The position numbers and the translations under genes were made by a program. DNA of 50,525 nt from a virus. Taxonomy: Duplodnaviria; Caudoviricetes. Positions 1 to 46,584 of this stretch are shown piece after piece (the stretch's first letter is position 1; each line of letters opens with the position of its first letter). The stretch spans positions 1-50,525 of the IMG/VR virus record IMGVR_UViG_3300048588_000030. One strand, 5' to 3'. The notes beneath the pieces were generated by a model. The model was not told the origin of the DNA. It saw only the letters and a list, made by a program, of their open reading frames with translations, and searched no databases.

Positions 1-115
1 CGTAGGCCGTAGTGTGCACGTTCTCACACTCACACTCTATACCATACCACCGCTCAGCATCATCAGGACTCCCGACACGTATGTCGTACCCGAACTTGTC
101 TCTAATAGTACGCAT
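1..115 (-). CDS. N-terminal part of the putative amidoligase (continues across the window junction into 49637..50525)
   Basis: Manual translation from ATG at 115 gives MRTIRDKFGYDIRVGSPDDAERWYGIECECENVHTTAY. YGIECE fits the N-terminal GxExE motif of glutamine synthetase-fold amidoligases. GAGG RBS upstream; the frame is open off the left edge. Confidence 0.8.
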   Translation of the reverse strand, partial: MRTIRDKFGYDIRVGSPDDAERWYGIECECENVHTTAY

Positions 116-779
116 TAATTTGCAACCTCTTATTGACTGCACTAATTATTGCACCGTCTACCCCACTCTTAGGGGAAAACGCTCCGCAAAAGTCACTATA
201 CCCTACACTGGCCCCTGAATGAAACACCTCCAACTTCTCGTTGGGGGCGACTTCGCTGATGATAGTAGTGCGTGAAAGAGCAACAGATACTGCCTCATTT
301 CGGCTTAGCATTGCAACCGCCTCCTGAAATGTGGGGTATTGCGGTGTCCACAGAGCTTTGACTAAAGGCCAGCAGACACTACGCAGCCACGTACCCGATG
401 CGTAGAACGGAGTATTGCCCGGAAGTCTTGGGATACGTGCAAACGCGCTCGCCGCCCACTCATTCGGAACAGTCACACTGATAGCGTCCAAGTTAAGTGA
501 GCGCCTATATGACTTGGCCACTCTGCGACTGACGTACACCCCAAACCCCAAAGGCAAGTTCACTGCCCCAAGACGAGGCCAATGCCCTCTAACGTCCTTA
601 GCTAGGCTGGCTACCATCTGCCGCGCTTCCGTAGGTGGGGACTCATCGCAGTGGCAAACGACTGTTCCATCTATCGCCGTCACGTACCTTGGTCCAACGT
701 ACCCCTCAACACTTACCCACGTACGGTCGTACCATTGCCGGATATCAGCAGGAGCTAAATTACTCGGTGTCTGTAACAC
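102..779 (-). CDS. Conserved hypothetical phage protein within the amidoligase cluster
   Basis: 225 aa, GTG start with GGAGGT RBS, tightly packed with its neighbours. Confidence 0.75.
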   Translation of the reverse strand: MLQTPSNLAPADIRQWYDRTWVSVEGYVGPRYVTAIDGTVVCHCDESPPTEARQMVASLAKDVRGHWPRLGAVNLPLGFGVYVSRRVAKSYRRSLNLDAISVTVPNEWAASAFARIPRLPGNTPFYASGTWLRSVCWPLVKALWTPQYPTFQEAVAMLSRNEAVSVALSRTTIISEVAPNEKLEVFHSGASVGYSDFCGAFSPKSGVDGAIISAVNKRLQINAYY

Positions 780-785
780 AGCTGG

Positions 786-1106
786 TTACCTCCATGTGCT
801 TTCTACTTGAGTTTTAGTGTCTGGAATTATCGTGATGTGCGTAGTGTCCTCGTACCACGCACGACCAATCGAGGCAGTAGCGGTAGTGACGTGAGAGCTT
901 GGTGGCTCGTATGTTGTAACATTGTTTTGCGGATTAACAGCAACAATAGTGTGCTTAACTAAACGCAGTCCAGCATCTCTCAGCCGCCCAAGCATGTCCG
1001 TGTATGCAGCGTAATAACTTGCCATGTGCACTCCGTAACTAAACTTCCTGACAATTCCGTCATCCGCAGCGCCGTCTGCGTACACCCAGTAATGATTCCC
1101 AGACAT
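786..1106 (-). CDS. Hypothetical protein
   Basis: 106 aa; the start overlaps the GGCT stop codon. Confidence 0.65.
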   Translation of the reverse strand: MSGNHYWVYADGAADDGIVRKFSYGVHMASYYAAYTDMLGRLRDAGLRLVKHTIVAVNPQNNVTTYEPPSSHVTTATASIGRAWYEDTTHITIIPDTKTQVESTWR

Positions 1107-1642
1107 TACCCAGCACTCGCACTAGATGATGCCCTACGTTGCGCCGGAGTCTCCGGAGTCGGACGCGCACTGAGGATGAACGCGTGCTCATCCGCAGTAG
1201 GTCGCCAGCACTGGATCTGGGAAGACTCAAGGCAACTCTTATCCTCTGGGAGTCCGGGAAGAAAGTAGCACCACGCTCGTACCTCCTCATGGGCAGCGCT
1301 GTTGTCTTTGTGCAGTTGCGCAATCTCTTTAGTGCGAGTGTAGTAGAACCCGTTACTCTCCAATATATCCAGAGCTTGCAGTACATCAGGAGTTACTCTG
1401 TACACCTCACCCAAGATGTACGCCAGTGGAAGTGACGCGTGCTTATAGAGTCCGGGGTATGCTCGCATGTCTCGCATTGCGTAGTGCCCACGTAGCCATG
1501 CTCTGCCCAAGAACTCGGATGCCTCTTTATTCTCAAGCAGCACATGATTATGGAACCCTGCCTTCAGAGATCCATAAACAAACACAGTACTACGTGCGCT
1601 GCTGATGCTATTAGTATTTGGTTTCTTATCAGTTGTAGTCAT
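1106..1642 (-). CDS. Gamma-glutamyl cyclotransferase (GGCT/AIG2-like)
   Basis: VFVYGSLKAGFHNH signature, GEVY and LDILE...Y motifs. Confidence 0.9.
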   Translation of the reverse strand: MTTTDKKPNTNSISSARSTVFVYGSLKAGFHNHVLLENKEASEFLGRAWLRGHYAMRDMRAYPGLYKHASLPLAYILGEVYRVTPDVLQALDILESNGFYYTRTKEIAQLHKDNSAAHEEVRAWCYFLPGLPEDKSCLESSQIQCWRPTADEHAFILSARPTPETPAQRRASSSASAG

Positions 1643-2541
1643 GCTGCTTCCCTCATGTTATCAAGTAACGTAGAACTGTGCTGCATCAAATCAAATGCAG
1701 CTTGCGCATCTTCTGTGTTTATTGCATCACGTACTGCCCCCCACGGGATAGCGTCAAACAAGTTCATCACAGAGGCTATTGGCAGACCTATCAAAGTATC
1801 TAGCATGTTAAACGCAGATGTAGCCACCCGCGCAGTCCTAGTCTGACGGCTGGTCCAGAAGTTACTTAGTGTGCGATACTCGATTCCGTACTTTGTTGGG
1901 CGAAACCTACCAGCTTGCCCATAAAAGCTTCTGCGCACCCCCTGCCTATCCGCCTCTACGCACTTCAGTCCAATAAACACGTCGCAGAATGCGGCGAGGA
2001 CATACTTTGGAATCTCCAAAGCGTACACCCCCTTGTACGAGGCCCCTATGTGTAAGTGCCCACCAGCAAAGCGATACTCAAGTTCACCATTAGTGTCAGG
2101 AACAACAAGTTGCTCCACCTGTACTCTGGGTACTTGCGCGCCCTCCGCATACGCATCGAACTCTGGGGAGCACCCGAGCATGTAGGCTTGCGGATACGCG
2201 CTAAGTTCATCCCTAGACATCGTGACGTATCCAGCAGTAAGCAAGCCGTACTCTGGATTCTGCGCTCTAACACGCGTAACCAAGGCGAGCATAGCATTAG
2301 CAATACTGAGAGTGAATGACTCGAAGTTTGTCGTTGGCGGTATGTTGAACTCCGCAGTGATGCCATCCTCTTGTACAAAGAGCTTGTCATCTGGATTGCC
2401 TAGACTTGCTGGCAAGCCCTTCGATCCGCCCAACCATCCGCATACAGGTACAATATTGCCAGTACTCAGGTCACGGACGAACACTTCAGGATCTGCCCCC
2501 AAAGTGCATCGCAGCTTTGGACGATCTTTGGTGATAGTCAT
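1639..2541 (-). CDS. phiEco32-like COOH.NH2 ligase type 2
   Basis: Motifs LGADPEVF, QEDG..AEFNIPP, GCSPEF, RFAGGHLHIG, RRxFYGxAGxFRPxxYGIEYRTLSNFW. Confidence 0.9.
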   Translation of the reverse strand: MTITKDRPKLRCTLGADPEVFVRDLSTGNIVPVCGWLGGSKGLPASLGNPDDKLFVQEDGITAEFNIPPTTNFESFTLSIANAMLALVTRVRAQNPEYGLLTAGYVTMSRDELSAYPQAYMLGCSPEFDAYAEGAQVPRVQVEQLVVPDTNGELEYRFAGGHLHIGASYKGVYALEIPKYVLAAFCDVFIGLKCVEADRQGVRRSFYGQAGRFRPTKYGIEYRTLSNFWTSRQTRTARVATSAFNMLDTLIGLPIASVMNLFDAIPWGAVRDAINTEDAQAAFDLMQHSSTLLDNMREAA

Positions 2542-2550
2542 ACGTATTAC
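2537..2550. promoter_or_regulatory. Palindromic operator-like site GTCATACGTATTAC (copy 1, one mismatch)
   Basis: Matches four other copies; overlaps the start codon of the COOH.NH2 ligase gene. Confidence 0.6.
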
Positions 2551-2581
2551 TCCTATTTATGTGTGTGTATTGAACTATCAG

Positions 2582-3580
2582 TTACGGAAGAGGGTAACCG
2601 GGATGTATATAGTGCGGAAAGTATAGTTTCAGCTCCTGTGCAATGGTGTATGGAGAACCATCTCCCATAAGGATATCGGATCGAGTGCCACGCAGCCGCT
2701 CAGCCTCCGCGACTATACTACGGTCTAGTAATGCGAGGGAAGGGCGCTCAGAGTCAATTGTCAGCGTTACTACATAGTTTGTGCACATATTTCCGGAATT
2801 GTAGTTACGAAGTGGACGAGAGGCCCGCACACTCACTTTAGCGGTGTTCGGTAAGTAGGCGCTAAATGGCGCCGGCGTATCCTTACGCTCTATTTCTGAA
2901 ATAGACCGCACTCTCATCATTGGGAATAAGCCTAATGGAAAGCTCACAATACATGCCTTCGCTCTAGTTGCTGAAAGCTCCTTCATGACAGCTTGCAAAC
3001 AACCACCAGCTTTATCCGCAGCAAATAGTACACGGCGTCTGGCTTGGCACATACTTGCTACGATCTGCGCGGCTAATACCTTGATAGCGTACTTAGTAGC
3101 GTCTTCCCGCGATACATACTCCTGCCCGAGTAGTGCATTGAGCGATGGAAACGGGCATCTATTGTCATCTATTGTTTGTATCAAACGCCTACGTTCATGT
3201 TGTGCTGATGAGCGGAACATACTCGGGTAATGTTCATTGGACTTTATCTTGTACAAAGAATTATACTTTATTATATATGGATCAGAGCTATTTCTGTGCT
3301 TGTTTAAGTCTATGATCTCCCCATGAATTATAGATACACCACGCAGGAGTGCACCACCGCAAAACTCAGGTATACTATCAAGTATACACGACAACTCAAC
3401 TACACTACATATACCGTCTTCTAAAAAGTACACAAAGCTCATCCAGAGGTTTTCATCCCCGATTCGTACTCCCGATAGAGTGCTCGGTGGTGGCTGGCCG
3501 GCCGGGAGTATCGAACTTCTGGATAGGAGCATCATTGGAAACACCACTGAATCTGGTGAAGTAGCTAACTTTTCAGCCAT
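2582..3580 (-). CDS. Hypothetical protein (~332 aa)
   Basis: Long ORF. Start moved to ATG 3580 (MAEKL...) because a GGAG RBS precedes it. No recognised motif. Confidence 0.7.
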   Translation of the reverse strand: MAEKLATSPDSVVFPMMLLSRSSILPAGQPPPSTLSGVRIGDENLWMSFVYFLEDGICSVVELSCILDSIPEFCGGALLRGVSIIHGEIIDLNKHRNSSDPYIIKYNSLYKIKSNEHYPSMFRSSAQHERRRLIQTIDDNRCPFPSLNALLGQEYVSREDATKYAIKVLAAQIVASMCQARRRVLFAADKAGGCLQAVMKELSATRAKACIVSFPLGLFPMMRVRSISEIERKDTPAPFSAYLPNTAKVSVRASRPLRNYNSGNMCTNYVVTLTIDSERPSLALLDRSIVAEAERLRGTRSDILMGDGSPYTIAQELKLYFPHYIHPGYPLP

Positions 3581-3649
3581 ATCGCAACACTCCATGCAAG
3601 TATTAACACAAGAATTATGGCAGTTACGCCCCAATTAAGCAAATATCGG

Positions 3650-3850
3650 CTATTCATAGTCTCTGTACACCTCGTTTACGCCCTCATCATCCTTGTTAAA
3701 GTACGCGTTATTGACTTGTACCCAGTAATTACGGCACTCAGTAAGTTCTTTTCTGTGATTGCTTTGTTCCTTTTCCTTGCGAATTCGGTTGTATTTGGTA
3801 ACTTGGCGTGGTTTACTGCGTCCCCGCCTGTGCTCTCGAAGTGAACCCAC
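3650..3850 (-). CDS. Small basic hypothetical protein
   Basis: 66 aa, GTG start, GGAGG RBS. Confidence 0.55.
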   Translation of the reverse strand: MGSLREHRRGRSKPRQVTKYNRIRKEKEQSNHRKELTECRNYWVQVNNAYFNKDDEGVNEVYRDYE

Positions 3851-3874
3851 CTCCGTGTCCTCCCCTAACCCGTA

Positions 3875-4072
3875 TTAGGTCACCGAACGCAAGAACGCTG
3901 GCAGCCTACGTATACAGTATTTAGTCTCACTCGGCCAAACAAAGGCCAGAGTGTACCCACTTTTACCTAGTATTTCCCGCAATTCCTCAAGCGGGAGCGT
4001 GCTTGCCGCACCCACTATCGTGTACCCGTAGTCTGATAGCTTATTCTGAGTCTGTTCAACAGCCGCAAGCAT
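3875..4072 (-). CDS. Small hypothetical protein
   Basis: 65 aa, AGGAG RBS. Confidence 0.65.
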   Translation of the reverse strand: MLAAVEQTQNKLSDYGYTIVGAASTLPLEELREILGKSGYTLAFVWPSETKYCIRRLPAFLRSVT

Positions 4073-4162
4073 GGCACTATCTCCTATTTTTCCGCATAAA
4101 ATTAGACGACATCGCGGCGAAAGCAGCGCGAAGCGGTAGTGCGCGCCGCTTTACTCCACATT

Positions 4163-4176
4163 GTCATACGTATGAC
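4163..4176. promoter_or_regulatory. Palindromic operator-like site GTCATACGTATGAC (copy 2, perfect)
   Basis: Perfect 14-bp palindrome at the 3' end of ORF 4164..4604, about 90 bp upstream of the next gene. Confidence 0.65.
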
Positions 4177-4604
4177 TCCAGCTCCCGCTCACACGCACTA
4201 TCCCCGTACTGCCACTCCAAATACGCTCGGATCTTGCGCAAGATCTTCTCGTGCTCCTCAATAGCTACCTGAAATCTCATGGCCGCAGTCTGAGAAGGTT
4301 GCATGTGATGCAGTGCATGGCACATCTGCCCAGCATTATTGGACACCAATTCCATGATAGTGCCCCATTCAGTTCTCGACATAAGCGGTGTACCTTCGGT
4401 CGCTTCGTCCCGGATAGCCTCGCTTTCAGGCCCGCTCTCCATCGGAGGCATTTCGTCCTCCCAAAATGCTAACGCTTGCTCCATGCCCTCCACCAGAGCA
4501 ATCTCCTCATCGGGCGAAAGTGCGTAGTCCTTTTCATCAAGCCATTCTTCCGGCTTGCCCTCGTACACATCCGCGCTCGTCTCACACGTATTAGGCGTTG
4601 TCAT
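4164..4604 (-). CDS. Acidic hypothetical early protein
   Basis: 146 aa, Glu-rich, ATGA overlap with the upstream ORF, GAGG RBS. Confidence 0.7.
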   Translation of the reverse strand: MTTPNTCETSADVYEGKPEEWLDEKDYALSPDEEIALVEGMEQALAFWEDEMPPMESGPESEAIRDEATEGTPLMSRTEWGTIMELVSNNAGQMCHALHHMQPSQTAAMRFQVAIEEHEKILRKIRAYLEWQYGDSACERELESYV

Positions 4605-4924
4605 GACACGTCCTCGCTTGTTGGTGAGTAAATAGTTACGTGATTGCCCTGATTCATACGTCGGTATTTACGCTTGATCTGAACCAGCAACCAAGCGAAC
4701 TCGGGCTTTCCGCCACAGTGAACCAATATCCACGCCTCACATATAGCGGGCAGCGTACCGATTCTGTAAATTTTTGATGCGTTCTCAGCCAAAGCAGCCG
4801 GATGGGCAGCCTTGTCGCTGATGTACTTCATCATTGATGGCTGGCGAGCCAGCATAAACATCCACAATTGCCTAGCTTGCGCCCGCGTGCCGTACACGCT
4901 GGCCGATGACTTCGGAGTGCCCAT
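4601..4924 (-). CDS. Hypothetical early protein
   Basis: ORF 4601..4930; probable ATG at 4924 overlapping the upstream stop. Confidence 0.6.
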   Translation of the reverse strand: MGTPKSSASVYGTRAQARQLWMFMLARQPSMMKYISDKAAHPAALAENASKIYRIGTLPAICEAWILVHCGGKPEFAWLLVQIKRKYRRMNQGNHVTIYSPTSEDVS

Positions 4925-5073
4925 TAGCAATCATCCCCATAAATAGGTGGTTTGCCCTCGCACCACACGTCAACGAATGGCGGTTCCTCGTAGTGTACTG
5001 GTTGCGGCGCACTATGGCACCCATTGAGGATGCACAACCACAGAACCAGCGCACCCCACGTGAACGCAGCCAT
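4924..5073 (-). CDS. Small putative lipoprotein or membrane protein
   Basis: MAAFTWGALVLWLCILNGC...: a hydrophobic stretch ending in a lipobox-like LNGC; GAGG RBS. An alternative upstream start lies at 5166. Confidence 0.5.
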   Translation of the reverse strand: MAAFTWGALVLWLCILNGCHSAPQPVHYEEPPFVDVWCEGKPPIYGDDC

Positions 5074-5296
5074 GATTAGCTCGCCTCGATTGAAGTTCAA
5101 GTTGAGAGATGAGGAAACCGGCGATTGCACCTGGACGGGCGGAAGCAGGGAAATATCTGATATCATATTCTTCTTCCAGCCCCGTGCAGTAAACGAGCGC
5201 CTGGGTCAGGCTTTCGTTGAAAATAACTGAATACACCGCCCAGTCTGTATGGACGGTGTAGACCTGGTTGGTTGTTCGGCGGATTGAGAGTTTCAT
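5012..5296 (-). CDS. Hypothetical early protein
   Basis: 94 aa, GGAGG RBS and ATGA overlap with the upstream ORF; the 3' end overlaps the next ORF. Confidence 0.45.
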   Translation of the reverse strand: MKLSIRRTTNQVYTVHTDWAVYSVIFNESLTQALVYCTGLEEEYDIRYFPASARPGAIAGFLISQLELQSRRANHGCVHVGCAGSVVVHPQWVP

Positions 5297-5625
5297 CCGT
5301 TCAGTTCCTCCGGGAACAGAATGTCGAAACAGGCGTTGGAACAGACCCCGGAGATCAACTGCTCTAGATCTTCACCAGTCGCCTCGGGCCAGACGTTTTG
5401 AATCAGTTCGCCTTGCAGCCAGCGTTTTTGTTTCAGAGGGAATTCTGGAAGGGCCGCCAGGCGGAAGGGTTTTTTCTCCTCGCAGACGGGGCAGAATTTC
5501 AGAATAACAGAATTGTCTTGCATTTCGATAGCTCCTGGTTTGTCATCATCAGGCAGGAAGTAACCAGCTTCCTGCGACGGCCAGGGTGGGAAGGGGAACT
5601 CTCTGGGCATCCCCTTGCAACACAA
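5293..5625 (-). CDS. Putative zinc-binding hypothetical phage protein
   Basis: CPVC ... GELIQNVWP ... LISGVCSNACF pattern; true start uncertain. Confidence 0.6.
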   Translation of the reverse strand: MCCKGMPREFPFPPWPSQEAGYFLPDDDKPGAIEMQDNSVILKFCPVCEEKKPFRLAALPEFPLKQKRWLQGELIQNVWPEATGEDLEQLISGVCSNACFDILFPEELNG

Positions 5626-5827
5626 CCCCTGGCCGTTTCGACCGAGGGTTAGGTGGAGCCAGTGATTCCCGTATGTACTTCAGCACTCGCACAAGTTCGG
5701 CGTGGTCTGCCTTGCGCAAGTCCCCGAGTTCATCAATCGCGTCAACGAAGTCATACAGGCGCATGATGTGGTCATCATGTATCAAGTAATCCGCTTCTAT
5801 CCTGTTATTCACGCCAGTCTCTCCCAT
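5549..5827 (-). CDS. Hypothetical early protein
   Basis: 92 aa ORF in the early operon; start uncertain. Confidence 0.5.
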   Translation of the reverse strand: MGETGVNNRIEADYLIHDDHIMRLYDFVDAIDELGDLRKADHAELVRVLKYIRESLAPPNPRSKRPGVVLQGDAQRVPLPTLAVAGSWLLPA

Positions 5828-5828
5828 T

Positions 5829-5842
5829 GTTATACGTATGAC
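5829..5842. promoter_or_regulatory. Palindromic operator-like site GTTATACGTATGAC (copy 3)
   Basis: Intergenic, directly upstream of ORF 5549..5827. Confidence 0.65.
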
Positions 5843-5851
5843 GATGCACCA

Positions 5852-6370
5852 TTAGCCCATGTCTACCATAATCACGTCAGTTAACCCTGACCTAAGCGCA
5901 GCACGTACCCACGTCATGCCGTGCTTAGGGTCAACGCAATAGCCGTAGGTCTTGCGGCCAGCACGTATAGCCCACCGTGCTTTGCTCTTGGCTAGTCCCT
6001 TGCCTTGCGTGAACTCCTCCCGCGTGGTAAGGAGCGATAGCACGTATACGTCCACGTCCGAGACAACAGCCGTCTTGCACTCAGGGTGCTTAGGCGTAGG
6101 CGCTAGCCGCATAGGATGCACGGCTAGCCCAAACGATAGCGGCCTCTGCACCTCTCCCCGTGCGTGCTTACGTACCGCGTTACTCTTGCGTGTCACTTTC
6201 CCCACGCTCAACGCTCTTCCCGTGCTGGTAGTGTGCGGCACCAGTCCCGGCCCATTGGGATTGCGTGCAAACATACGCGCCAATGACTGTAGTGCGCTAT
6301 TGCTTGCCCGCTCCCGCGCCACGCTATTCCGTGCGGCTGTCTCTCTAGCTATGCGCTTTACACTAGGCAT
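5852..6370 (-). CDS. Basic hypothetical early protein
   Basis: 172 aa, Arg/Ala-rich, GGAG RBS. Confidence 0.7.
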   Translation of the reverse strand: MPSVKRIARETAARNSVARERASNSALQSLARMFARNPNGPGLVPHTTSTGRALSVGKVTRKSNAVRKHARGEVQRPLSFGLAVHPMRLAPTPKHPECKTAVVSDVDVYVLSLLTTREEFTQGKGLAKSKARWAIRAGRKTYGYCVDPKHGMTWVRAALRSGLTDVIMVDMG

Positions 6371-6383
6371 TGCTCAATCTCCA

Positions 6384-6403
6384 ATTGTTATACGTATAAC
6401 AAT
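6384..6403. promoter_or_regulatory. Palindromic operator-like site ATTGTTATACGTATAACAAT (copy 4, perfect 20 bp)
   Basis: Intergenic, immediately upstream of the RBS of ORF 5852..6370. Confidence 0.7.
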
Positions 6404-6536
6404 CTACCAATCCCAAAAACAATTCCCCACGTGCATAGTATACGCCTATTCCATAAGATTTGGCGTGAGGCATTAAATATTTTTTTGCTGCATTGTCTGT
6501 GCATTGCTGGCAAAGCAGTCCGATGGAGCGGCAAAC

Positions 6537-6570
6537 AAAAAAGCCCGGTAGAGCTTTCGCCCTACCGGGT
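6537..6570 (-). terminator. Rho-independent terminator after the first early gene
   Basis: Minus strand reads CCCGGTAGGGC-GAAA-GCTCTACCGGG followed by CTTTTTT. Confidence 0.85.
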
Positions 6571-6585
6571 TAGTGTCGCCACGTT

Positions 6586-7236
6586 TTATGCTGCCATCTG
6601 TACCAGTTCGGCAACTGGATCAGCACTTGACGCTGCGGCAGTCGTGTCGTGATCACTTGCTGCCATGAGTGCCTTGACTGCTACCGTGATCGCGTCAAAT
6701 CGGCGTGCAGGTACGCTGCCATCCTTGATGCTCGCCGCAATGCTGGCAAGGTCGGCAAGGATCGCGGCACGTGCCTTATCCGCGTCCGTCATGGCGGCAG
6801 CTTTTGCCTTATCTTTTGCCTCTTTCACTGCCTTGTAGATGGCGCCGTAAGACGAATCAGCCGGCAGTTTAACCTTGAGTTCTATCGCGTCCGTCAAGGT
6901 AGACTTGGCCGTACGGTAGGAACCCGGCAGAACTGGCGAAGCCGCGCCAGTCTTGTCAGGTTTCCCGAGGATCACCGGGCAATCCTTCAGCAGGCCGGCC
7001 CGGTAATCGGACTCAACTTGCTCAAGCGCGCCGATCAATGCTGCCGGTGCCGGGTGCATGTTAAACAGCCGTGCTACCAGCACATAGGTACCCTCTTTCT
7101 TCTGCTTAGCGCTATCGGTCGCGCCTTTCGTTTCGTACCCTGCCCGGAACGTGGCAAGCGCCAGTTCGGCCAAAGTCTGCTGGCGTCCGGGTTCGCTTGT
7201 CTGAGCGGGTACTTTCGTTTGTCTGTTCTTGCTCAT
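6586..7236 (-). CDS. First early gene, Ala/Lys-rich hypothetical protein
   Basis: 216 aa, GAGG RBS, followed by its own terminator. Confidence 0.85.
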   Translation of the reverse strand: MSKNRQTKVPAQTSEPGRQQTLAELALATFRAGYETKGATDSAKQKKEGTYVLVARLFNMHPAPAALIGALEQVESDYRAGLLKDCPVILGKPDKTGAASPVLPGSYRTAKSTLTDAIELKVKLPADSSYGAIYKAVKEAKDKAKAAAMTDADKARAAILADLASIAASIKDGSVPARRFDAITVAVKALMAASDHDTTAAASSADPVAELVQMAA

Positions 7237-7352
7237 GGTCGTTGCCTCTTGTAATGGCGCGCGGTGCGTGCCTTCAGATGTATTAGAACACGATTCCTAG
7301 TCAGATTGGAAGTACCTAGTAAATCTTTTTCGTGCCTTTCTCGGTGCGCGTT

Positions 7353-7366
7353 GTCATACGTATAAC
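7353..7366. promoter_or_regulatory. Palindromic operator-like site GTCATACGTATAAC (copy 5)
   Basis: Lies just downstream of the proximal sigma-54 promoter. Confidence 0.65.
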
Positions 7367-7392
7367 TTTAGACTTGGCATGCTTCGTGACTG

Positions 7393-7409
7393 TGCAAGTA
7401 CCGTGCCAG
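7393..7409 (-). promoter_or_regulatory. Sigma-54 (-24/-12) promoter 1
   Basis: CTGGCACGGTACTTGCA matches the consensus YTGGCACGRNNNTTGCW exactly. Confidence 0.8.
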
Positions 7410-7440
7410 CGTAGATTCAGCCTAGACTGTCCCCGTCGCG

Positions 7441-7457
7441 TGCAAGGATCGTGCCAA
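7441..7457 (-). promoter_or_regulatory. Sigma-54 (-24/-12) promoter 2
   Basis: TTGGCACGATCCTTGCA, exact consensus match. Confidence 0.8.
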
Positions 7458-7479
7458 CGTGCCAGCGTGTGCCGTTGCG

Positions 7480-7496
7480 TGCAAGATCCGTGCCAA
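7480..7496 (-). promoter_or_regulatory. Sigma-54 (-24/-12) promoter 3
   Basis: TTGGCACGGATCTTGCA, exact consensus match. Confidence 0.8.
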
Positions 7497-7548
7497 GTCG
7501 CCGGGTTATGGCCAGTACTGTATGGATGCACAGTGGTTGAGAGTGAAA

Positions 7549-7565
7549 TGCACCACTTTAGTGCG
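7549..7565. promoter_or_regulatory. NtrC-like enhancer box 1
   Basis: TGCACCACTTTAGTGCG against the NtrC dyad TGCACCA-N3-TGGTGCA; upstream of the sigma-54 sites. Confidence 0.65.
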
Positions 7566-7576
7566 AGACCCCGTTT

Positions 7577-7593
7577 TGCCCCATTTTGGTGCG
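7577..7593. promoter_or_regulatory. NtrC-like enhancer box 2
   Basis: TGCCCCATTTTGGTGCG; 28 bp centre-to-centre from box 1. Confidence 0.65.
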
Positions 7594-8055
7594 CCAACGC
7601 CGCATAGCGGCATTATGCGCATACCGCGGTGCAACATGCAGGGACCCCACCCACGGGTGGTGGTACGGAGGGGGGTCGCGCAAGTGAAATACACCCTCAA
7701 ATTATCTCCAAAAAATTATTACCTAGGATTGGGGGCTACGTACTCTGGGGTAGGGTATGTACCCTAAACCCTCACCAGACTGCGTATAATGCGTTTTAAG
7801 CAACTTTAACCCTAAACCAATGCCAAGGTAGCGGGTAGGGGGTATAAATACGTCCTAGACGATTATACGAGACGAGTGCCAATCCGGGGCGGTAGGTCCC
7901 TGTTGGGACCGTTCACTGCCCCGTACCATGCCCTCGGCAGTAGATCTGAACTGCCTCGGGTATTATACGCGAGGGTACCGAGCGTGCACGCTAAATTTAA
8001 ATTTAACCAAATATCAGGTACTTAGTATTTTTGGTAAAAATAAATTATATTTTCT

Positions 8056-8086
8056 TGTCACAAACGACGTTTTCAAACGTTTATAT
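8056..8086 (+). promoter_or_regulatory. Putative phage ECF-sigma promoter (late arm)
   Basis: TGTCACA-aacgacgttttcaaa-CGTTTATAT; the same motif and spacing recur at 40664 and 46585. Confidence 0.75.
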
Positions 8087-8277
8087 TATATATACTACGT
8101 GTTTTTATTATATATATATATAATATATTATATAATATATATTATAATATATATATAAATAATATAATAATTATATAATATAATAAATATATAATATATT
8201 AATAATATATATATATATAATATTATATATAATATATTATAATAATATAATATACTAAAATAATATAATATACTAAA
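8081..8277. repeat. Low-complexity, almost pure A/T tract (TA/TAA units)
   Basis: About 195 bp with only a handful of G/C in an otherwise balanced-GC genome. Confidence 0.9.
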
Positions 8278-8355
8278 CACCGTCCCGGGCCAGTTACCAC
8301 TGTCCCGGGTATATAATAACCATAGCTCCCTGTTGGAGCTTCACTGGAGCCTTGA

Positions 8356-9057
8356 ATGGGTGGGGAAGATATCCAAGACCAACTGCCGGGAAACCAAGAG
8401 TTCCCCGGAGAGGGCTTGGCCTCGGAGGAGGAGCGAGGGAGCGAATACACCACCGGGAAGGAGAACAAACCTCCCCGGAAACGTGGTTACGTTGCTGAAG
8501 CTATGCCGGACATCGCTAGGCGAGTCCGGGATGCCCGTGGTCGTTACCTGACATCCGCCCTGTTCCAAGAAACTAAACGCCCCGACTCACCGTACGAGCC
8601 CATCTACACCCTTGCCGAGTTCCCCAAGCACAATCGGATCTGTGCCCGGCAACTGTACATGGAAGCCAACGACCCCACAGAGTACGCCGCTGCCCTCTCG
8701 ATTCTCGGTTCTTGGGAACATTGGCAGCATCTCTGTGCGGCCCCTTGGTTTGCCCCGGTCGTGGAGCAGTGGAGGGCGGAGCTGAAACAGAAGCTCCTGT
8801 TCGAGGCGACGAAGAAAGTTATCGACCTTTGCGACTCTTACGAATCAAGTTCGTCCCTTGCTGCTGCCAAGAAGCTCATGGACACTTTGGCACCCAAACC
8901 TAAAAGTGCCCCCAGACGCAATAGGACGGCCTCTGACGAACAATCGCCTGAAACCCATATCAACCCCGTGGGTAGGCCCCATAAACCACCCGTGCTCAAC
9001 GAGGTAAGCCCCGAGGACACGGACGCCGATCTAGCGAGGATCTTGGAATTTGGCTAA
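8356..9057 (+). CDS. terS: Terminase small subunit (putative)
   Basis: LYMExxDPTEY..A...LGSWEHW..L....WF...V..WR.EL pattern recalled from SIO1/VpV262/PA11-type phages; first gene of the late arm. Confidence 0.7.
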   Translation: MGGEDIQDQLPGNQEFPGEGLASEEERGSEYTTGKENKPPRKRGYVAEAMPDIARRVRDARGRYLTSALFQETKRPDSPYEPIYTLAEFPKHNRICARQLYMEANDPTEYAAALSILGSWEHWQHLCAAPWFAPVVEQWRAELKQKLLFEATKKVIDLCDSYESSSSLAAAKKLMDTLAPKPKSAPRRNRTASDEQSPETHINPVGRPHKPPVLNEVSPEDTDADLARILEFG

Positions 9058-10600
9058 GCTAACTCTCACCGATGTAGCTCTTGGGGCTAGCGCAATAGCG
9101 GCGATTAACGCCAATAGTGCCGCCATTGAGGCGGCTAGTGATGGATGGGTGTCCAGAGACGGCACGTCCCCAAACCAAATGGAAGCCGATCTAGACATGA
9201 ACTCGCACCGGGTAGTTAATCTAGCTCCCGGAGTAAACCCTAACGACGCAGCTACGGTCAGCCAGATAGCTCCCGGCCCGGCTGGTCCTGCTGGTCCTGC
9301 CGGTCCCACGGGTCCTACTGGTCCTGCCGGCCCTACAGGTCCTGCGGGAGCTGGTGGAGCTGGCACACTGCCCGCTGGGGATTACGGGGACATTGTCGTT
9401 ACAGAGTCCCCAACAACGATCAACATCAAACCAGCGGTAGCTACTGTGGTTGGCCGCGCAGTCATGGGGGCAGTAAGCACTACTGCAGCTCGCACCGCCC
9501 TGGCACTCGGCTCTTCTGCGCTGTACAACGTTGAAGACTTCGACGCTAGTGGTACTGCTGTTGCTACTGTAGATGCACACGTCTCTGCCAGTGATCCGCA
9601 TCCCGTATACGTAACAAACGCGGACTTGAGCGCACATGGACTAGCCGCAAACCCTCATCCAGTATACGCAACAGATGCCGATCTTGCGGCCCACGCGGCA
9701 GCCGCAGATCCGCACGCTGGGTATGTGTTGGACGCTACCTTAGCGGCGCACACCTCAGCTGCGTCGCCGCACGCAGGTCATACTACTGATGCGGAGTTCT
9801 CAGCGCACGTTGCAGGAGTTGATGCCCATCCGGGATACGTCACAGATGCTGAGCTTGCTGCCCACGTGGCTGCTGCGGACCCGCACCCAGACTACGCTAC
9901 CGAGACTTACGTAAACGGAATCGTACTTGCCCCTTTATCTTCTATTCCTGATGGCCTAGTTACTGCCCCCGGACTGGCGTTTTTTGACGAGCCGAACAGT
10001 GGGTTCTATCGTGACACTAACTTTCAGGTCAAGTTAGCTCTCAATGGGGTGAGTAGTTATACATTTACTCAAGGTAAACTAATCGGCCCTTCGGCGTCTG
10101 TAGCTACGTCAGAGACAGGATACGTAAGTGGAGGTACTGTTGCAGCTCGTGATTACCCATCTGGCGGGGGTAAACTGTGCACGATATACAAAGCCTCACA
10201 ACTTATTTCAGCGACCACCGCTACCAAGATTACAACATGGGACAGCCTAGCTAATGCGAGTTCAGACAGTACGTACTTTGGTGCAGTAACTACCGCCAGA
10301 TCAACTGGAGATATTTTTGTTGGCCTCATTACAGGTCGATTTCAGCTAACGCTTACAGGTTACGTGGATGACACAGGCGGTGGGGCTCGTGTGTGGTTCG
10401 AGTTCTATAAAAATGATGCACCGTTAACGGCTCCAGTTAGGACGCTCGTTGATCTGGCCAGTGGGTATTCTGGGCAGGTTGCGCTTTCCACTGTGTGTAG
10501 CGGGACCGCAACTGATACATTCTCAGTGTACGCGTACCGAGAGACTAATAATAGGACTGTGCGGAATTTACACTTTACTGCTACTCTGCTAAGGTCATAA
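9050..10600 (+). CDS. Tail fibre protein with collagen-like and His-containing repeats
   Basis: TTG start; N-terminal anchor (SRDGxxPNxMxxDLDMN), (GPX)8, six 19-aa repeats, beta-rich C-terminus. Confidence 0.8.
   Translation: MAKLTLTDVALGASAIAAINANSAAIEAASDGWVSRDGTSPNQMEADLDMNSHRVVNLAPGVNPNDAATVSQIAPGPAGPAGPAGPTGPTGPAGPTGPAGAGGAGTLPAGDYGDIVVTESPTTINIKPAVATVVGRAVMGAVSTTAARTALALGSSALYNVEDFDASGTAVATVDAHVSASDPHPVYVTNADLSAHGLAANPHPVYATDADLAAHAAAADPHAGYVLDATLAAHTSAASPHAGHTTDAEFSAHVAGVDAHPGYVTDAELAAHVAAADPHPDYATETYVNGIVLAPLSSIPDGLVTAPGLAFFDEPNSGFYRDTNFQVKLALNGVSSYTFTQGKLIGPSASVATSETGYVSGGTVAARDYPSGGGKLCTIYKASQLISATTATKITTWDSLANASSDSTYFGAVTTARSTGDIFVGLITGRFQLTLTGYVDDTGGGARVWFEFYKNDAPLTAPVRTLVDLASGYSGQVALSTVCSGTATDTFSVYAYRETNNRTVRNLHFTATLLRS
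9275..9346 (+). repeat. Collagen-like (Gly-Pro-X)8 coding repeat
   Basis: GPAGPAGPAGPTGPTGPAGPTGPA. Confidence 0.9.
9572..9913 (+). repeat. Six ~57-bp coding repeats (AH...DPHxxY..DA.L)
   Basis: For example AAHAAAADPHAGYVLDATL and AAHVAAADPHPDYATETYV. Confidence 0.8.
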
Positions 10601-10609: not shown

Positions 10610-11176
10610 ATGGCGAAACTGGTTCTCACAGATGTAACTAATATCCATACTGGCGCAAGCACGCTGAATGCAAACTTTGCGGCGATTGAAGCGGCGTTCG
10701 AGGATACTGTTAGCCGCTCAGGAGAAGCCCCAAACGAACTTAACACTAACCTTGACGCAAACTCATATCGTGTCTACAACCTAGCTCCCGGAATTGACGC
10801 CAATGACGCGGTTACGGTTGGGCAGCTCACTGGTGCGACCCCTATTGGGACGGCGGAGACGTTCACCAAGGTCCAACACTCTTCTGGTACGTACGCGTTC
10901 TCTGCTGGAGCAACCCTAATCTGGGTACACACCACAGGGGCTTCCGGAGCTACTGGAGCCACACTGTGCCCTGCACTTACAGATTCAGAGCTTATCATCG
11001 AACGTGCAGCAAACTACGCTGTTACAGTCACTCCAAGTGCTGGAGAGAGTATTGTAGGAGGCACTGCTGGGCAGGCTATAGTACTCCTTGGATATGGTAT
11101 TATACGACTCAAGTGCAGAACTCCGGGTACATGGACTATCATTTCTGATTCAGCCTTGTGGAACTTCGTCGCCTAG
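10610..11176 (+). CDS. Short tail fibre or adaptor, paralogue of the upstream fibre N-terminus
   Basis: The first ~75 aa align with 9050..10600 (MAKL.LTDV, NAN.AAIEAA, VSR.G..PN, LD.NS.RV.NLAPG...NDA.TV.Q). Confidence 0.8.
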   Translation: MAKLVLTDVTNIHTGASTLNANFAAIEAAFEDTVSRSGEAPNELNTNLDANSYRVYNLAPGIDANDAVTVGQLTGATPIGTAETFTKVQHSSGTYAFSAGATLIWVHTTGASGATGATLCPALTDSELIIERAANYAVTVTPSAGESIVGGTAGQAIVLLGYGIIRLKCRTPGTWTIISDSALWNFVA

Positions 11177-11177
11177 C

Positions 11178-12716
11178 ATGTCCAAGCACGATGAGATAAA
11201 GCTCGCTGCAGAGGAGTCACTACTAGCCTTTATACGACTTATTGCTCCACATCGTGTTCTGAGTCCGTGCCACGTAGATCTTATTCGCTGGTGGACTCGG
11301 GATGATGCCAAGTCCCATCAGCTAACCCTGATGCCACGGGATCACCAGAAGAGTGCCTTGATAGCCTACCGTGTAGCGTGGACGATTACCAAGAAACCAG
11401 AATCAACCTTTCTGTATATCTCGTCTACTGCTAACCTTGCTGAGAAGCAACTTAAGTTCATCAAGGATATCCTCACTAGCAAGATCTACCGACGCTACTG
11501 GCCAGAAATGGTCAACATGGATGAGGGCCGTCGTGAGAAGTGGACTACTAGCGAAATTGCGGTCGATCACCCTATTCGCAAGCAAGAGGGAGTACGCGAT
11601 CCTACAATCTTTACTGGTGGTCTTACTACCTCCCTTACTGGGATGCATTGTTCTAACGCTGTTCTGGATGACGTAGTAGTTCAAGAGAACGCGTACACTA
11701 AAGAGGGCCGACAGAAGGTCAAGGAGCAGTATAGTCTTCTGGCCTCTATCGAGTCCGCCGATGCCTCTGAATGGACTGTGGGCACGCGCTACCACGCTGA
11801 TGACCTGTATGGCTCCCAGATCGATATGATGGCTGAGGAGTTCGACGAGGCAGGTAACATGGTCTCGCAGGAGCCCGTGTACGAGGTCTACCAGCGTGAG
11901 GTTGAGGATGTTGGCGATGGCACAGGTAACTACCTCTGGCCCCGCCAGCAGCGCTACGATGGCCGGTGGTTCGGATTCGACCAACGAGTTCTGTCTAGGA
12001 AGCGCGCACAGTACTTGGACCGTTCCCAGTTTCGTGCCCAGTACTACAACAACCCCAATGATCCGGATAACGAGGTCATCGGAAGCCACCTGTTCCAGAA
12101 GTACGATAGAAAGTTCTTGGAGAAGCGTGGCGGGACGTGGACTATCCGAGGAAAGACACTGGCTGTATTTGCAGCCATAGACTTTGCGTTCAGTCTAAAG
12201 GCTACCGCCGACTATACTGCTATCGCTGTTGTTGGTGTTAATAGTTCTGGTGAGATCTATGTCCTTGAGATCCTGCGATTCAGGAGCAACAGGATAACCG
12301 ACTACTTCGATTCGCTGATGGATCTACACATGAAGTGGGGGTTCCGTAAGCTGCGAGCTGAGGTGTCGGTAGCACAGGAAGTGATTGTCGAGGAGTTGCG
12401 TGCTCGCGTGCGAGAGGCGGGTTACGGGCTGTCTATTGACACCCACCGCCCAACCCGCAACGAAGGCGACAAGGCTGAGCGTATTCACGCTATCCTTGCT
12501 CCACGCTACGAGAGCCTGTCTATCTGGCACTACGATAGCGGCTCTATCTCAGATCTGGAGGATGAGTTGAAGCAAGAGCACCCAAGACACGACGACTTGA
12601 AGGACGCCCTTGCGAGTGCTGTTTCCATTTCAGTAGTTCCCAAAGAGCGCCAAGCAGCCAACGTTGTCAGTATCAACACTCATTCTAGGTTTGGTGGAGT
12701 AGCGTTCCGTGGTTAG
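11178..12716 (+). CDS. terL: Terminase large subunit
   Basis: Walker A-like MPRDHQKS, Walker B AVLDD, GTRY coupling motif, RNase H-like IDFA...DYTA...HDDLKDA. Start moved to MSKHD at 11178. Confidence 0.93.
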   Translation: MSKHDEIKLAAEESLLAFIRLIAPHRVLSPCHVDLIRWWTRDDAKSHQLTLMPRDHQKSALIAYRVAWTITKKPESTFLYISSTANLAEKQLKFIKDILTSKIYRRYWPEMVNMDEGRREKWTTSEIAVDHPIRKQEGVRDPTIFTGGLTTSLTGMHCSNAVLDDVVVQENAYTKEGRQKVKEQYSLLASIESADASEWTVGTRYHADDLYGSQIDMMAEEFDEAGNMVSQEPVYEVYQREVEDVGDGTGNYLWPRQQRYDGRWFGFDQRVLSRKRAQYLDRSQFRAQYYNNPNDPDNEVIGSHLFQKYDRKFLEKRGGTWTIRGKTLAVFAAIDFAFSLKATADYTAIAVVGVNSSGEIYVLEILRFRSNRITDYFDSLMDLHMKWGFRKLRAEVSVAQEVIVEELRARVREAGYGLSIDTHRPTRNEGDKAERIHAILAPRYESLSIWHYDSGSISDLEDELKQEHPRHDDLKDALASAVSISVVPKERQAANVVSINTHSRFGGVAFRG

Positions 12717-36988: not shown

Positions 36989-37747
36989 TTATTTGAGTAA
37001 TTTACGAAGCTTGCCTAGTGAGATGGGGGACCAGTTAAACCTACCAACCTTGTAGTGGTCGAGCAGCACTATACCGCGCCAGTAAGACGTAATACTACCC
37101 AAAGCGTAGTCATCAATGTGCTCAAAGAAGCAACCCACATTGAGCGCCTGATTGAGGTGAGCAGACCCGTGCCTATGTACGGCCACCGACGCAAGCTTAT
37201 GAGTATGCCCGAATACAACGCTATGCTGATAAATTGCGAGACTGCGATTACAAGCGTTAACCCCACCAACAGGTTTTCCAGACTCATTAATTGGAACATG
37301 GGTGAAATGTACCCCCTTATAGTTGAAGTGCTCCTTATACGGCACGTGCGTCCAATGCTCGATATCTAGATCCTTACGATAGTCAACCGCTCCATCAAAC
37401 AGGGGCTGCAGATCCAAGTAGCGCCACAGCCTCTCCTCGTGGTTGCCCTCGGTCAGGATGTAATCTTTGCATCGATGTCCACCGTTGTCGTCCATGAGCT
37501 GCAAGAATCGCTTTCCTGCGTCGATGTCCTTCTGGTAGCGCCGCCCCTCCATCTTCTTCCGCTTGTCCTTGTCCCACGCTGACAAGGAATCAAACGTCAT
37601 AAGATCCCCAATGAACACTACCCGCTTTGGGCGAAGATCATCAATAGCCATGCCAAGCAGCTTGGCGCGGCTCAGATCTTGCCCAGCAGATACATGCACA
37701 TCCCCAACTACCAGTGTCAGATCATCTGACTTTAGAAGCTTATTCAT
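36989..37747 (-). CDS. Calcineurin-like metallophosphoesterase
   Basis: GDVH, GD, GNHE, H and GHTH motifs; start set to MNKLL at 37747. Confidence 0.88.
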   Translation of the reverse strand: MNKLLKSDDLTLVVGDVHVSAGQDLSRAKLLGMAIDDLRPKRVVFIGDLMTFDSLSAWDKDKRKKMEGRRYQKDIDAGKRFLQLMDDNGGHRCKDYILTEGNHEERLWRYLDLQPLFDGAVDYRKDLDIEHWTHVPYKEHFNYKGVHFTHVPINESGKPVGGVNACNRSLAIYQHSVVFGHTHKLASVAVHRHGSAHLNQALNVGCFFEHIDDYALGSITSYWRGIVLLDHYKVGRFNWSPISLGKLRKLLK

Positions 37748-38126
37748 GGAACAAGAAGTCCGGGTGAGCCGCGGCGCCTCCAATAAAGCGCACGGGCACT
37801 CCAGCCCAGTTGGCCCGCCTCACCATATCAGCCGTCCCTCTTCCTCCCGGAAACGCCACAACAAGATCTATCCCCAACTCCAGCATCCTCTCGTTCCGAG
37901 CTATTCCAGCGTAGTTGCCCAACTTATTCCAGTTAGCGGGGCACATGATCTCTTGCACGCCCCGCAGCCTAGCCCACTTACCTGCCAGACTATGTGCGCC
38001 TGTAGAGTTGCCGTGAATGATACAGGTAACATGGGGGGAGTTCTCTAGAGCAACGTCATCCAATGCACTGAACACGCAGACCTCGTCCGTGTAGTCCCTA
38101 CCTCCGCACACAAGTACCTTCATCAA
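37740..38126 (-). CDS. SLOG/YspA-like (DUF2493) protein
   Basis: VLVCGGRDY, IIHG, AG..RN..ML, VAFPGGRGTADM. Confidence 0.85.
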   Translation of the reverse strand: MMKVLVCGGRDYTDEVCVFSALDDVALENSPHVTCIIHGNSTGAHSLAGKWARLRGVQEIMCPANWNKLGNYAGIARNERMLELGIDLVVAFPGGRGTADMVRRANWAGVPVRFIGGAAAHPDFLFHE

Positions 38127-38503
38127 CTACTCTCCCTTTCTACGAAGAACCACCGTGCCGGTCTATCGTCCCCTTGCTTATACGCCTTGGTGTAGTGCTC
38201 CAGCATTAGCAAGTTGGCCATCACGTGCCCCAGATGCGGCTTGCCAGATTCCGGATCAATGTCCTCCCCCATGTACCACGCTGACAGGTGGCGCAACATG
38301 CATCCGTACGGCACCGACCACGGCATACCTTTCGCCCAGTTCCATGCAGCGTACTTGTTGGCTCCGTACTCAAATACGTCCGCACAACTAGCCAGCAGAT
38401 GCAAAGGCACAAGATCCATGCGCGTCTTGTTAGCGTTAGCACGTGCACCACTACCCCACTCCGCAGACGCTATGTCCCCGATGTTGTACTTGTATACAGC
38501 CAT
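38123..38503 (-). CDS. dATP/dGTP diphosphohydrolase-domain (DUF5664-like) protein
   Basis: K.R.DL.P, GA.KY..WNW.KG, LRHL.AW..GED.DPESG.PHL.H; start set to MAVYK at 38503. Confidence 0.85.
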   Translation of the reverse strand: MAVYKYNIGDIASAEWGSGARANANKTRMDLVPLHLLASCADVFEYGANKYAAWNWAKGMPWSVPYGCMLRHLSAWYMGEDIDPESGKPHLGHVMANLLMLEHYTKAYKQGDDRPARWFFVERESS

Positions 38504-38886
38504 TCCTTTGGTATCTTCCCCATTGCGAACGGAATCTCGTGTTGGCGACACCACATCGAATAGGTCGTGTTGGACACAGGACTTAGTCGATTGTCCCTCT
38601 GTAGGACTATGCGGAGATCTACCTCCGGATTCTGTTCCTTGACCGCAAGAATCTTGGTCCGGTCGTCCGATGTGAAGCGCCCCTTGCATTCCACTAATAT
38701 CCTCGTACCTGGAATACTGAAATCTGGGAGATACCATCTCGCCTTTGGTTGCCATCTCAACTTCTCCTCTGGTGGTTCGTAGCTAAGTTTGGTTCCTTTC
38801 TGAAGTGCATCTTCGTAAACATACTTCTCAAAGCCGGAACGGAAGCCTGCTTTCTTGGCCTCCAGTCGAGCAGGTCTTCGTCCCAT
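38470..38886 (-). CDS. T7 endonuclease I-like Holliday junction resolvase
   Basis: FRSGFE, YLPDF and ECKG (PD-(D/E)xK), plus Y..WC. Confidence 0.88.
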   Translation of the reverse strand: MGRRPARLEAKKAGFRSGFEKYVYEDALQKGTKLSYEPPEEKLRWQPKARWYLPDFSIPGTRILVECKGRFTSDDRTKILAVKEQNPEVDLRIVLQRDNRLSPVSNTTYSMWCRQHEIPFAMGKIPKEWLYTSTTSGT

Positions 38887-39173
38887 TCAAAGTCTCCTGT
38901 GTCAGTGGTTGTAGGCTTAGTGTGATACCTCTTGTGCAACAGCATAGCACAAAGGGCTCCGCTTCCCGCCGCAGCGCCTATCGTCAGCGCCAAGGGCAAC
39001 GTAAACCCCAGAGCGGCGACTTTGGCGATCACGTATACCTCAGTCAAGGCAAGTCCAAAGCTCGTCGGTATAACCATACCGTAGTTGTCGAACGCCACGT
39101 TACGCTGCTGATACGCTTTCAGGAATATGAACAGAAAGTTGGCACCAGCTACTGCGAGATAAGTGCTAATCAT
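38757..39173 (-). CDS. Hypothetical membrane protein
   Basis: Three hydrophobic segments; the C-terminal tail overlaps the endonuclease gene by 130 nt. Confidence 0.65.
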   Translation of the reverse strand: MISTYLAVAGANFLFIFLKAYQQRNVAFDNYGMVIPTSFGLALTEVYVIAKVAALGFTLPLALTIGAAAGSGALCAMLLHKRYHTKPTTTDTGDFEWDEDLLDWRPRKQASVPALRSMFTKMHFRKEPNLATNHQRRS

Positions 39174-40002: not shown

Positions 40003-40018
40003 AGCGCGTTACCTCCTA

Positions 40019-40618: not shown

Positions 40619-40663
40619 AATTTATCCTCATATTATCAGGTTATAAAACTTGGCACTTGTATT

Positions 40664-40694
40664 ATATAAACGTTTGAAACTCCACTTTGTGACA
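40664..40694 (-). promoter_or_regulatory. Putative phage ECF-sigma promoter (upstream of the SSB-like gene)
   Basis: TGTCACA-aagtggagtttcaaa-CGTTTATAT. Confidence 0.75.
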
Positions 40695-40696
40695 AA

Positions 40697-44465: not shown

Positions 44466-44466
44466 T

Positions 44467-46487: not shown

Positions 46488-46503
46488 GTCCGTATCCTCC
46501 GTG

Positions 46504-46570: not shown

Positions 46571-46584
46571 CTATACCGTGTATT

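Follow-up and report, generated by a model that had tools for sequence, protein, structure and literature searches.

Does a phage have to wait for its host to run short of nitrogen before its replication genes can be switched on? This question is raised by the control region of IMG/VR virus record IMGVR_UViG_3300048588_000030. The window analysed here is the entire virus record, 50,525 bases with a CheckV completeness of 100%, and represents a podovirus-like phage of ~50 kb. Its genes form two arms that diverge from a 1.1-kb gap (7237–8355). The gap holds a cluster of -24/-12 boxes for sigma-54 (P1, P2 and P3) together with two palindromes that resemble the binding sites of the nitrogen regulator NtrC (dyads 1 and 2; Table 1). 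On these motifs, the window probably holds NtrC-type, sigma-54-dependent phage promoters. That phosphorylated host NtrC binds at 7549–7593 and fires P1–P3, so that the leftward arm would be transcribed best in nitrogen-limited cells, is in our judgment a reasonably probable reading.

Sites for sigma-54, IHF, LexA and Fur were looked for by consensus sequence. For sigma-54, a GG and a GC element stand 10 bp apart within TGGCACG-N4-TTGCW. The gap contains three exact TGGCACG-N4-TTGC boxes, all on the minus strand and clustered between 7394 and 7495, which bears out the sigma-54 array called in the original prediction, made from the letters of the window. The only other match in the window, at 47127, has one mismatch. 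Each of the three is followed by an A (TTGCA) and is co-oriented with the first gene of the leftward arm, lying in intergenic DNA 146–233 nt upstream of its ATG at 7236 on the same strand. The starts listed in Table 1 are arithmetic, the C of the -12 GC being set as -12. A simple scan of the minus strand from 7237 to 8048 found no sigma-70-like sites, and from this we infer that the arm would be transcribed from P1–P3.

For NtrC, a 17-bp consensus, TGCACCAnnnTGGTGCA, with highly conserved cores GCAnnA and TnnTGC, is given in the portion of PMC8743547 that deals with the motif, and an NtrC-like motif is mentioned for Methylomonas in the corresponding part of PMC12799797. We scanned with the pattern TGCACCA-N3-TGGTGCA, counting mismatches. 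Dyads 1 and 2, which are 28 bp apart start to start, are the only matches with two mismatches or fewer in the 50,525 bases, and allowing four mismatches reveals no further dyads in 7237–8355. The mismatches of dyad 1 fall at weakly conserved positions. The sequences, spacing and positions of the pair are those first proposed. Their centres, 7557 and 7585, stand at -88/-116 from the predicted start of P3, -127/-155 from that of P2 and -175/-203 from that of P1; the computed range of 88–203 bp agrees with the ~90–200 bp originally estimated.

Could two such sites be a chance resemblance without function? The motif was picked after the sequence had been viewed, each site carries two mismatches, and 5 of 100 dinucleotide shuffles reach two sites somewhere in the genome (mean 0.34 dyads per genome; 0.23 in a second set of 300 shuffles). 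Nevertheless, we regard chance as very improbable. The two dyads, spaced at 28 bp, directly precede the one sigma-54 cluster of the window, and the arithmetic chance of two such dyads in one given 300-bp stretch is ~1e-6. Chance would also have to explain why the main dyad is kept in a close relative amid unalignable DNA, and why the pairing of dyad and box recurs in viral contigs when a reversed-letter control yields none; both of these results are given below.

For comparison with glnAp2, the glnA–bipA gap of E. coli K-12 was put through the identical scan, which returned a box with one mismatch and dyads with one and two mismatches, 32 bp apart, centred at -108/-140. The phage dyads are equal to these in mismatch quality and lie at similar distances upstream of the sigma-54 box, and one of the glnAp2 dyads shares the TAGTGC half of phage dyad 1. 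Canonical co-oriented boxes, with two dyads that match those of glnAp2 in quality and lie at similar distances, amount to the complete Ntr-type promoter architecture that had been claimed. The layouts are not identical. The dyads are 32 bp apart at glnAp2, 28 bp in the window and 18 bp in G001, the close relative described below; there is one promoter in the cellular case and three in tandem in the phage; and a nitrogen-assimilation gene follows glnAp2, whereas the phage boxes head early and replication genes. glnAp2 has further weak NtrC sites, and counterparts of these are not evident in the phage.

The sigma-54 holoenzyme forms closed complexes, the opening of which needs an enhancer-bound AAA+ activator. 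A domain search found PF00158, the sigma-54 activator domain, absent from the phage proteins. Since sigma-54 needs an activator and the phage is without an enhancer-binding ATPase, the dyads most probably serve as the enhancer of a host activator that has the specificity of NtrC (GlnG). NtrC is phosphorylated at low glutamine and binds paired dyads upstream of glnAp2. In an infected cell with low glutamine, phosphorylated NtrC would occupy dyad 1, the strong site, as well as the weaker dyad 2, oligomerise, reach the closed complexes by DNA looping and fire P1–P3. This would turn on the early genes, a module of amidoligase and glutamine amidotransferase (GATase) genes, a sigma factor and the replication genes. 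A feedback is possible, in which the glutamine-consuming enzymes of the arm would lower glutamine further and keep NtrC phosphorylated. From this layout one would predict that NtrC binds, that transcription depends on rpoN and that infection is gated by nitrogen, as suggested at the outset. The phage may also be lytic, as it had been called: no tyrosine integrase match was found in the window.

IMG/VR contains two close relatives of the phage, with terminase identities of 87% and 84%. The contig of G002 begins within an A/T tract in the gap, so it is without the control region. G001 (locus L096) carries the control region at its contig end, followed by a syntenic arm with proteins 27–73% identical to those of the window. 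The gap DNA of the window and G001 is alignable in islands only. Box P2 is kept in one of these (17/18 identical, the sole difference being in the N4 spacer), and dyad 1 in another (15/17 identical, with one of the two differences in the N3 spacer); the G001 dyad aligned there has one mismatch. Further islands are a CCGyGGTGCrA block, which is possibly an extra NtrC half-site (TGGTGC), and a right-hand block beside the A/T tract. Around these islands the region has changed. G001 has one box compared with three in the window, and dyad 2 has no aligned partner in G001. The second dyad of G001 is weaker (3 mismatches) and sits directly left of the main one, where the window has a spoiled remnant, so that the G001 dyads are centred at -117/-135. 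Retention of a primary dyad with turnover of the secondary site is the pattern expected of selection on a cluster of binding sites. A ligase-alignment search of metagenome_contigs gave no further relative, and a motif-independent anchor pattern built on the right-hand block found G001 only in viral_contigs and nothing in metagenome_contigs. Small shares only were present in six runs, and the contigs of X1 and X2, which cover 7479–7989 at ~98–99%, resemble the window too closely to say anything about conservation.

To look beyond this lineage, IMG/VR was scanned for pairs consisting of an exact GCACCA-N3-TGGTGC dyad core 75–105 bp from an exact TGGCAC-N5-TTGC box. The enhancer-then-promoter order was found in 10 stretches, G001 among them, and the swapped order, with the dyad downstream of the box, in 20; the reversed-letter control gave 0. 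The 28 loci other than G001 fall into 11 groups without mutual DNA similarity and with G+C contents from 41 to 63%. At least one perfect 17-bp palindrome is present in 12 of them, and only 3 share any protein with the window phage over the stretches examined. Since these loci were found by searching for the motifs, what they show is recurrence far beyond chance, not independent conservation. That phages without relationship have one consensus in common suggests a host factor that is itself conserved. One locus, L186, resembles the window in layout, with a ligase homologue 3.2 kb downstream of the dyad and box. In the largest group, named for L190, a sigma factor and primase are encoded on one arm, and the opposite arm carries terminase and portal; the dyad and two boxes are directed toward the terminase arm, and one box points the opposite way. 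No cultured relative of the L190 family was found.

Many of these arrays are dense and depart from the usual layout. L194 has 8 perfect dyads (800–1115), L199 has ~14 boxes on both strands (7850–8720), and L197 has 7 boxes within 200 bp (1–340). Across the arrays of L183–L210, face-to-face pairs of boxes recur at 18–22 bp, there is a recurring unit of a dyad 9 nt ahead of a box, and dyads often lie ~100 bp downstream of a box. The window has a degenerate plus-strand sigma-54 box (3 mismatches) at 7375–7389, face to face with P1 at a 19-bp offset, which is the geometry of the exact box pairs in the arrays of other phages. Near the arrays there is also a palindrome, ATGAGAATnATTCTCAT (two mismatches or fewer), which we take to be Fur-box-like. 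It occurs at L096:1194–1210 (G001), L194:863, L200:3971 and 4091, L209:10441, L191:7007 and others, for a total of 22 matches across G001 and 10 of the 28 array loci (0.29 Mb), compared with 4 in 2.2 Mb of motif-independent loci. None is present in the window. We tentatively entertain, while thinking it somewhat doubtful, that the window is one case of widespread and undescribed phage control regions: arrays of canonical sigma-54/NtrC sites, many with Fur-box-like palindromes, through which diverse uncultivated phages would sense the nitrogen (and iron) status of the host and time or gate whole transcription arms accordingly, or would titrate these regulators.

The dense arrays, with their face-to-face boxes and dyads downstream of boxes, also bring up a different function for the window. 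There, the main role of boxes and dyads might be that of decoys, sequestering sigma-54 holoenzyme and NtrC while copies of the phage genome accumulate and so blunting the nitrogen-stress response of the host, or they might, instead of being promoters, serve an A/T-rich, origin-like element, the window array being ~500 bp from a 170-bp pure A/T tract. We think this quite unlikely. The three exact boxes of the window are co-directed to the first gene at what are ordinary leader distances, no alternative promoter was recognised for the arm, and three boxes and two dyads would make a small sponge.

Several points weigh against activation of P1–P3 by NtrC. One mismatch of dyad 2 falls in a core, and neither the 28-bp spacing of the window nor the 18-bp spacing of G001 corresponds to full turns of the helix. 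The phage control region was scanned for an IHF-like site and has none, although glnAp2 likewise functions without IHF. A phage that needed an activated host regulator for its first transcription would idle in nitrogen-replete cells unless it has unrecognised promoters. Only one informative close relative holds the region. In the IMG/VR pairs the swapped order is commoner than the canonical one, and boxes lie on both strands, face to face; simple enhancer-to-promoter logic may not be the whole story. Finally, the dyads do not follow the boxes into distant relatives. Among 101 loci (~1.06 Mb), the exact 11-base box is found only in G001, L060, L070, L071 and L073, where ~0.5 occurrences are expected by chance. 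In the last four it is on the minus strand ~3 kb upstream of terminase, in the equivalent divergent gap, and none of the four (0/4) has an NtrC-like dyad within 300 bp at up to three mismatches. In 80 ligase-alignment loci (1.33 Mb), the 10-base box occurs 11 times compared with 0–4 times in 20 shuffles, and the ligase arm is preceded by boxes in its own orientation in G001, in L121, which has a tandem pair, and in L136 and L149; L121, L136 and L149 have no NtrC-like dyad near their boxes. Distant relatives with the box at the equivalent place have other inverted repeats instead of NtrC-like dyads. Loss of the dyads where the sigma-54 sites are conserved had been named beforehand as a refutation; the dyads are conserved in the one close relative that has the region, and are absent near the boxes of the four distant terminase-linked loci and of L121, L136 and L149.

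Because distant relatives keep the box without the dyad, sigma-54 at the head of the arm appears older and wider than the NtrC-like enhancer, and within this lineage the enhancer appears limited to the clade of the window and G001. The differing palindromes of the distant relatives suggest other activators in other hosts. Palindromes lying upstream of the box include TGACCACATTTGGTCGA in L070:7040–7100, AACATAATCC-AGA-GGATTATGTT in L060:7000–7060 and ATTAGT-GTTT-ACTAAT in L149:2380–2440.

These other palindromes at the equivalent place also favour the possibility that the boxes of the window are real and its dyads are bound by some other protein, either a different host enhancer-binding protein or a phage regulator, one of the early proteins of unknown function, using them as operators. 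Palindromes in divergent control regions are typical of phage operators, the six genes closest to the promoters have no Pfam match, and the spacings of 28 and 18 bp differ from the 32 bp at glnAp2. Against this, the dyads match the consensus of NtrC no less closely than do the sites of glnAp2, and the same consensus, often as a perfect 17-mer, stands beside boxes in 11 other groups unrelated in DNA. A phage-specific regulator would not be expected to hold one specificity across loci of which 3 in 28 share a protein with the window. We therefore judge binding by another protein to be unlikely.

A glutamine- or glutamate-linked programme had been proposed from genes on the same strand as the boxes. 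A GATase, a COOH-NH2 ligase, an amidoligase and a GGACT cyclotransferase were all located there, and the ATP-grasp ligase fell under the Pfam cut-off (Table 1). As a general tie, the idea did not survive. The dyad at one mismatch or fewer is present in 1 of the 80 ligase loci, namely G001, and arrays of dyads and boxes also occur in phages with no ligase seen in the stretch examined. Together these speak against a general rule by which NtrC sites accompany glutamine or amidoligase genes.

Phages that make use of host sigma-54 are known, though rare. Development of Pseudomonas phage YuA depends on host sigma-54, according to the sections of PMC5053324 and PMC10914365 concerned with it. The window phage resembles YuA in being without an RNA polymerase of its own and, by prediction, using host sigma-54. 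The host sigma-54-dependent promoters of YuA were reportedly described by Ceyssens et al. in 2008. In the YuA record, three promoter fragments labelled '-24/-12' are placed among the structural and lysis genes, whereas the boxes of the window face away from the terminase/portal arm and toward the replication arm. Our scan of YuA found no TGGCAC-N5-TTGC box within one mismatch and no NtrC-like dyad within two. Another precedent is found in the marine cyanomyoviruses, for which NtcA (and Pho-box) promoters in phage genomes are treated in the relevant part of Sullivan et al. 2010 (PMC3037559). The same part proposes that phage expression exploits the nitrogen-stress response of the host, maybe reinforced by phage enzymes that shift 2-oxoglutarate (PMC3037559). 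The likeness is that a phage genome carries sites for the global nitrogen regulator of its host. The differences are that NtcA belongs to the CRP family, works at sigma-70-type promoters and senses 2-oxoglutarate, that hosts and phage families are other ones, and that NtcA sites are spread over many genes, whereas the window has one enhancer–promoter array heading an arm.

A third comparison is the phiEco32-type amidoligase module, with PF14395, the 'Phage phiEco32-like COOH.NH2 ligase-type 2', and a phage-encoded sigma factor. The arm of the window has this ligase and a small sigma-70-family sigma factor, together with the other amidoligase, the class-II GATase, the ATP-grasp protein and the GGACT cyclotransferase; elsewhere the module is widespread without NtrC-like dyads. 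The terminase of the window is nearest to SIO1/Lentibacter/ICP2-type podophages and not to phiEco32. A full-text literature search, with most subscription journals outside its reach, returned no paper in which a phage genome is described as having NtrC sites. This agrees with the earlier remark that no characterised phage was known to have this layout, as does the lack of such dyads in YuA. The newness thus probably lies in the NtrC-type enhancer layout, as a variant of known sigma-54-dependent phage promoters. A 2026 preprint, in the part seen, proposes a phage-encoded protein like a bacterial enhancer-binding protein but without a DNA-binding domain, which is a separate matter.

If the NtrC reading is true, a virulent-type phage starts its replication arm only via an activated nutrient sensor of the host. 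Nitrogen status, beyond the mere presence of a host, would then decide whether and how fast an infection proceeds, with a bearing on phage–host dynamics in nitrogen-limited waters and wastewater, and the NtcA idea from cyanophages would be extended to the sigma-54/NtrC system of Proteobacteria. It predicts that rpoN or ntrC mutants would be resistant or delayed, and that burst size and latency would vary with the nitrogen source. The perfect dyads and boxes in at least 11 further viral groups suggest a general strategy. The arrays would then be a source of compact, strong, nitrogen-responsive promoter parts.

The gene arms are laid out in Table 1. The two ends of the record are joined, and the minus-strand genes form one arm, because in G001 the amidoligase gene directly adjoins the homologue of window gene 102–779. 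The first gene past the promoters has AGAGG 8 nt ahead of its ATG. Its product has no Pfam, PHROG or PDB match and none in viral_contigs, and is 27% identical over 95 amino acids to the product of the first gene of G001. The sigma factor has no match among phage records. The window contains no tRNA genes.

Table 1. Positions in the window of the predicted control elements, the gene arms and selected genes.
Feature	Position	Strand	Remarks
Sigma-54 -24/-12 box P1, TGGCACGGTACTTGC	7394–7408	-	exact; predicted start ~7382
Sigma-54 -24/-12 box P2, TGGCACGATCCTTGC	7442–7456	-	exact; predicted start ~7430; box kept in G001
Sigma-54 -24/-12 box P3, TGGCACGGATCTTGC	7481–7495	-	exact; predicted start ~7469
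NtrC-like dyad 1 (primary), TGCACCACTTTAGTGCG	7549–7565		2 mismatches; cores GCAnnA and TnnTGC both intact
NtrC-like dyad 2 (secondary), TGCCCCATTTTGGTGCG	7577–7593		2 mismatches; left core GCC instead of GCA
Conserved block CCGyGGTGCrA	7625–7636		island in the window/G001 alignment
Leftward (minus-strand) arm	7236 down to 1, then 50525 down to 36989 (~36.99 kb)	-	
Leftward arm, near side	1–6585	-	unknown small genes, COOH-NH2 ligase type 2, GGACT cyclotransferase
Leftward arm, far side	36989–50525	-	amidoligase, class-II GATase, ATP-grasp, sigma factor, primase, helicase, RNA ligase, DNA polymerase A, 5'-3' exonuclease
First gene past the promoters, 216 aa	6586–7236	-	AGAGG 8 nt ahead of ATG
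COOH-NH2 ligase type 2 (phiEco32-type)	1639–2541	-	
GGACT cyclotransferase	1106–1642	-	
PHROG 'amidoligase' (second amidoligase)	49637–50515	-	
GATase_6/7 (class-II glutamine amidotransferase)	47934–49637	-	
ATP-grasp R2K	47165–47980	-	22 bits, under the Pfam cut-off of 26.2
Sigma-70-family sigma factor, 174 aa	46637–47161	-	
Plus-strand arm	8356 to ~36.4 kb	+	tail fibre, large terminase, portal-type head–tail adaptor, major head protein, tail proteins
Large terminase	11088–12716	+	

The divergent gap has other features besides the boxes and dyads. The A/T tract, at 8109–8277, consists of nothing but A/T over ~170 bp and includes degenerate TA-rich repeats, and the contigs of the relatives break at it, G001 ending there and G002 starting there. 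It may be an unwinding element or an origin. Just to its left is a conserved block, CAGGTACTTA-N32-GTCACAAA-N8-TCAAACGTT (8017–8083; L096:1434–1500), with identical spacing in the window and G001, which may be a rightward promoter or an origin element. Between 7780 and 7975 there are several TATAAT-like motifs within short G+C-rich repeats (GCGTATAATGCG, GGTATAAATACG, GATTATACGAG and GTATTATACGCG); these might be promoters directed rightward, perhaps ones recognised by the sigma factor that the phage encodes. At 7518–7533, between P3 and dyad 1, is a LexA-type box, CTGT-N8-ACAG, contained in TACTGTATGGATGCACAGTG. It is the single one in the genome, where 0.94 are expected by chance, and it is not kept in G001. 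An Rfam scan of 6900–8500 gave nothing near threshold.

Among cultured phages, the nearest terminases are those of the Lentibacter, Roseobacter SIO1, Celeribacter and Vibrio ICP2-type podophages, with identities of no more than 59%. Relatives of the terminase in genome_contigs, at 41–57% identity, are metagenome-assembled-genome contigs binned to unrelated taxa. A 516-amino-acid protein initially called terminase was reassigned as a tail fibre; it has only N-terminal matches, and none to a phage record. The tail-fibre genes at 9050–10600 and 10610–11176 have a collagen-like repeat stretch. A DNA search with 6500–9500 gave this collagen-like fibre repeat as its sole match, and the only phages in the database matched at the DNA level are of Prochlorococcus and Ruminococcus, in their fibre genes, at 74–88% over 50–110 bases.

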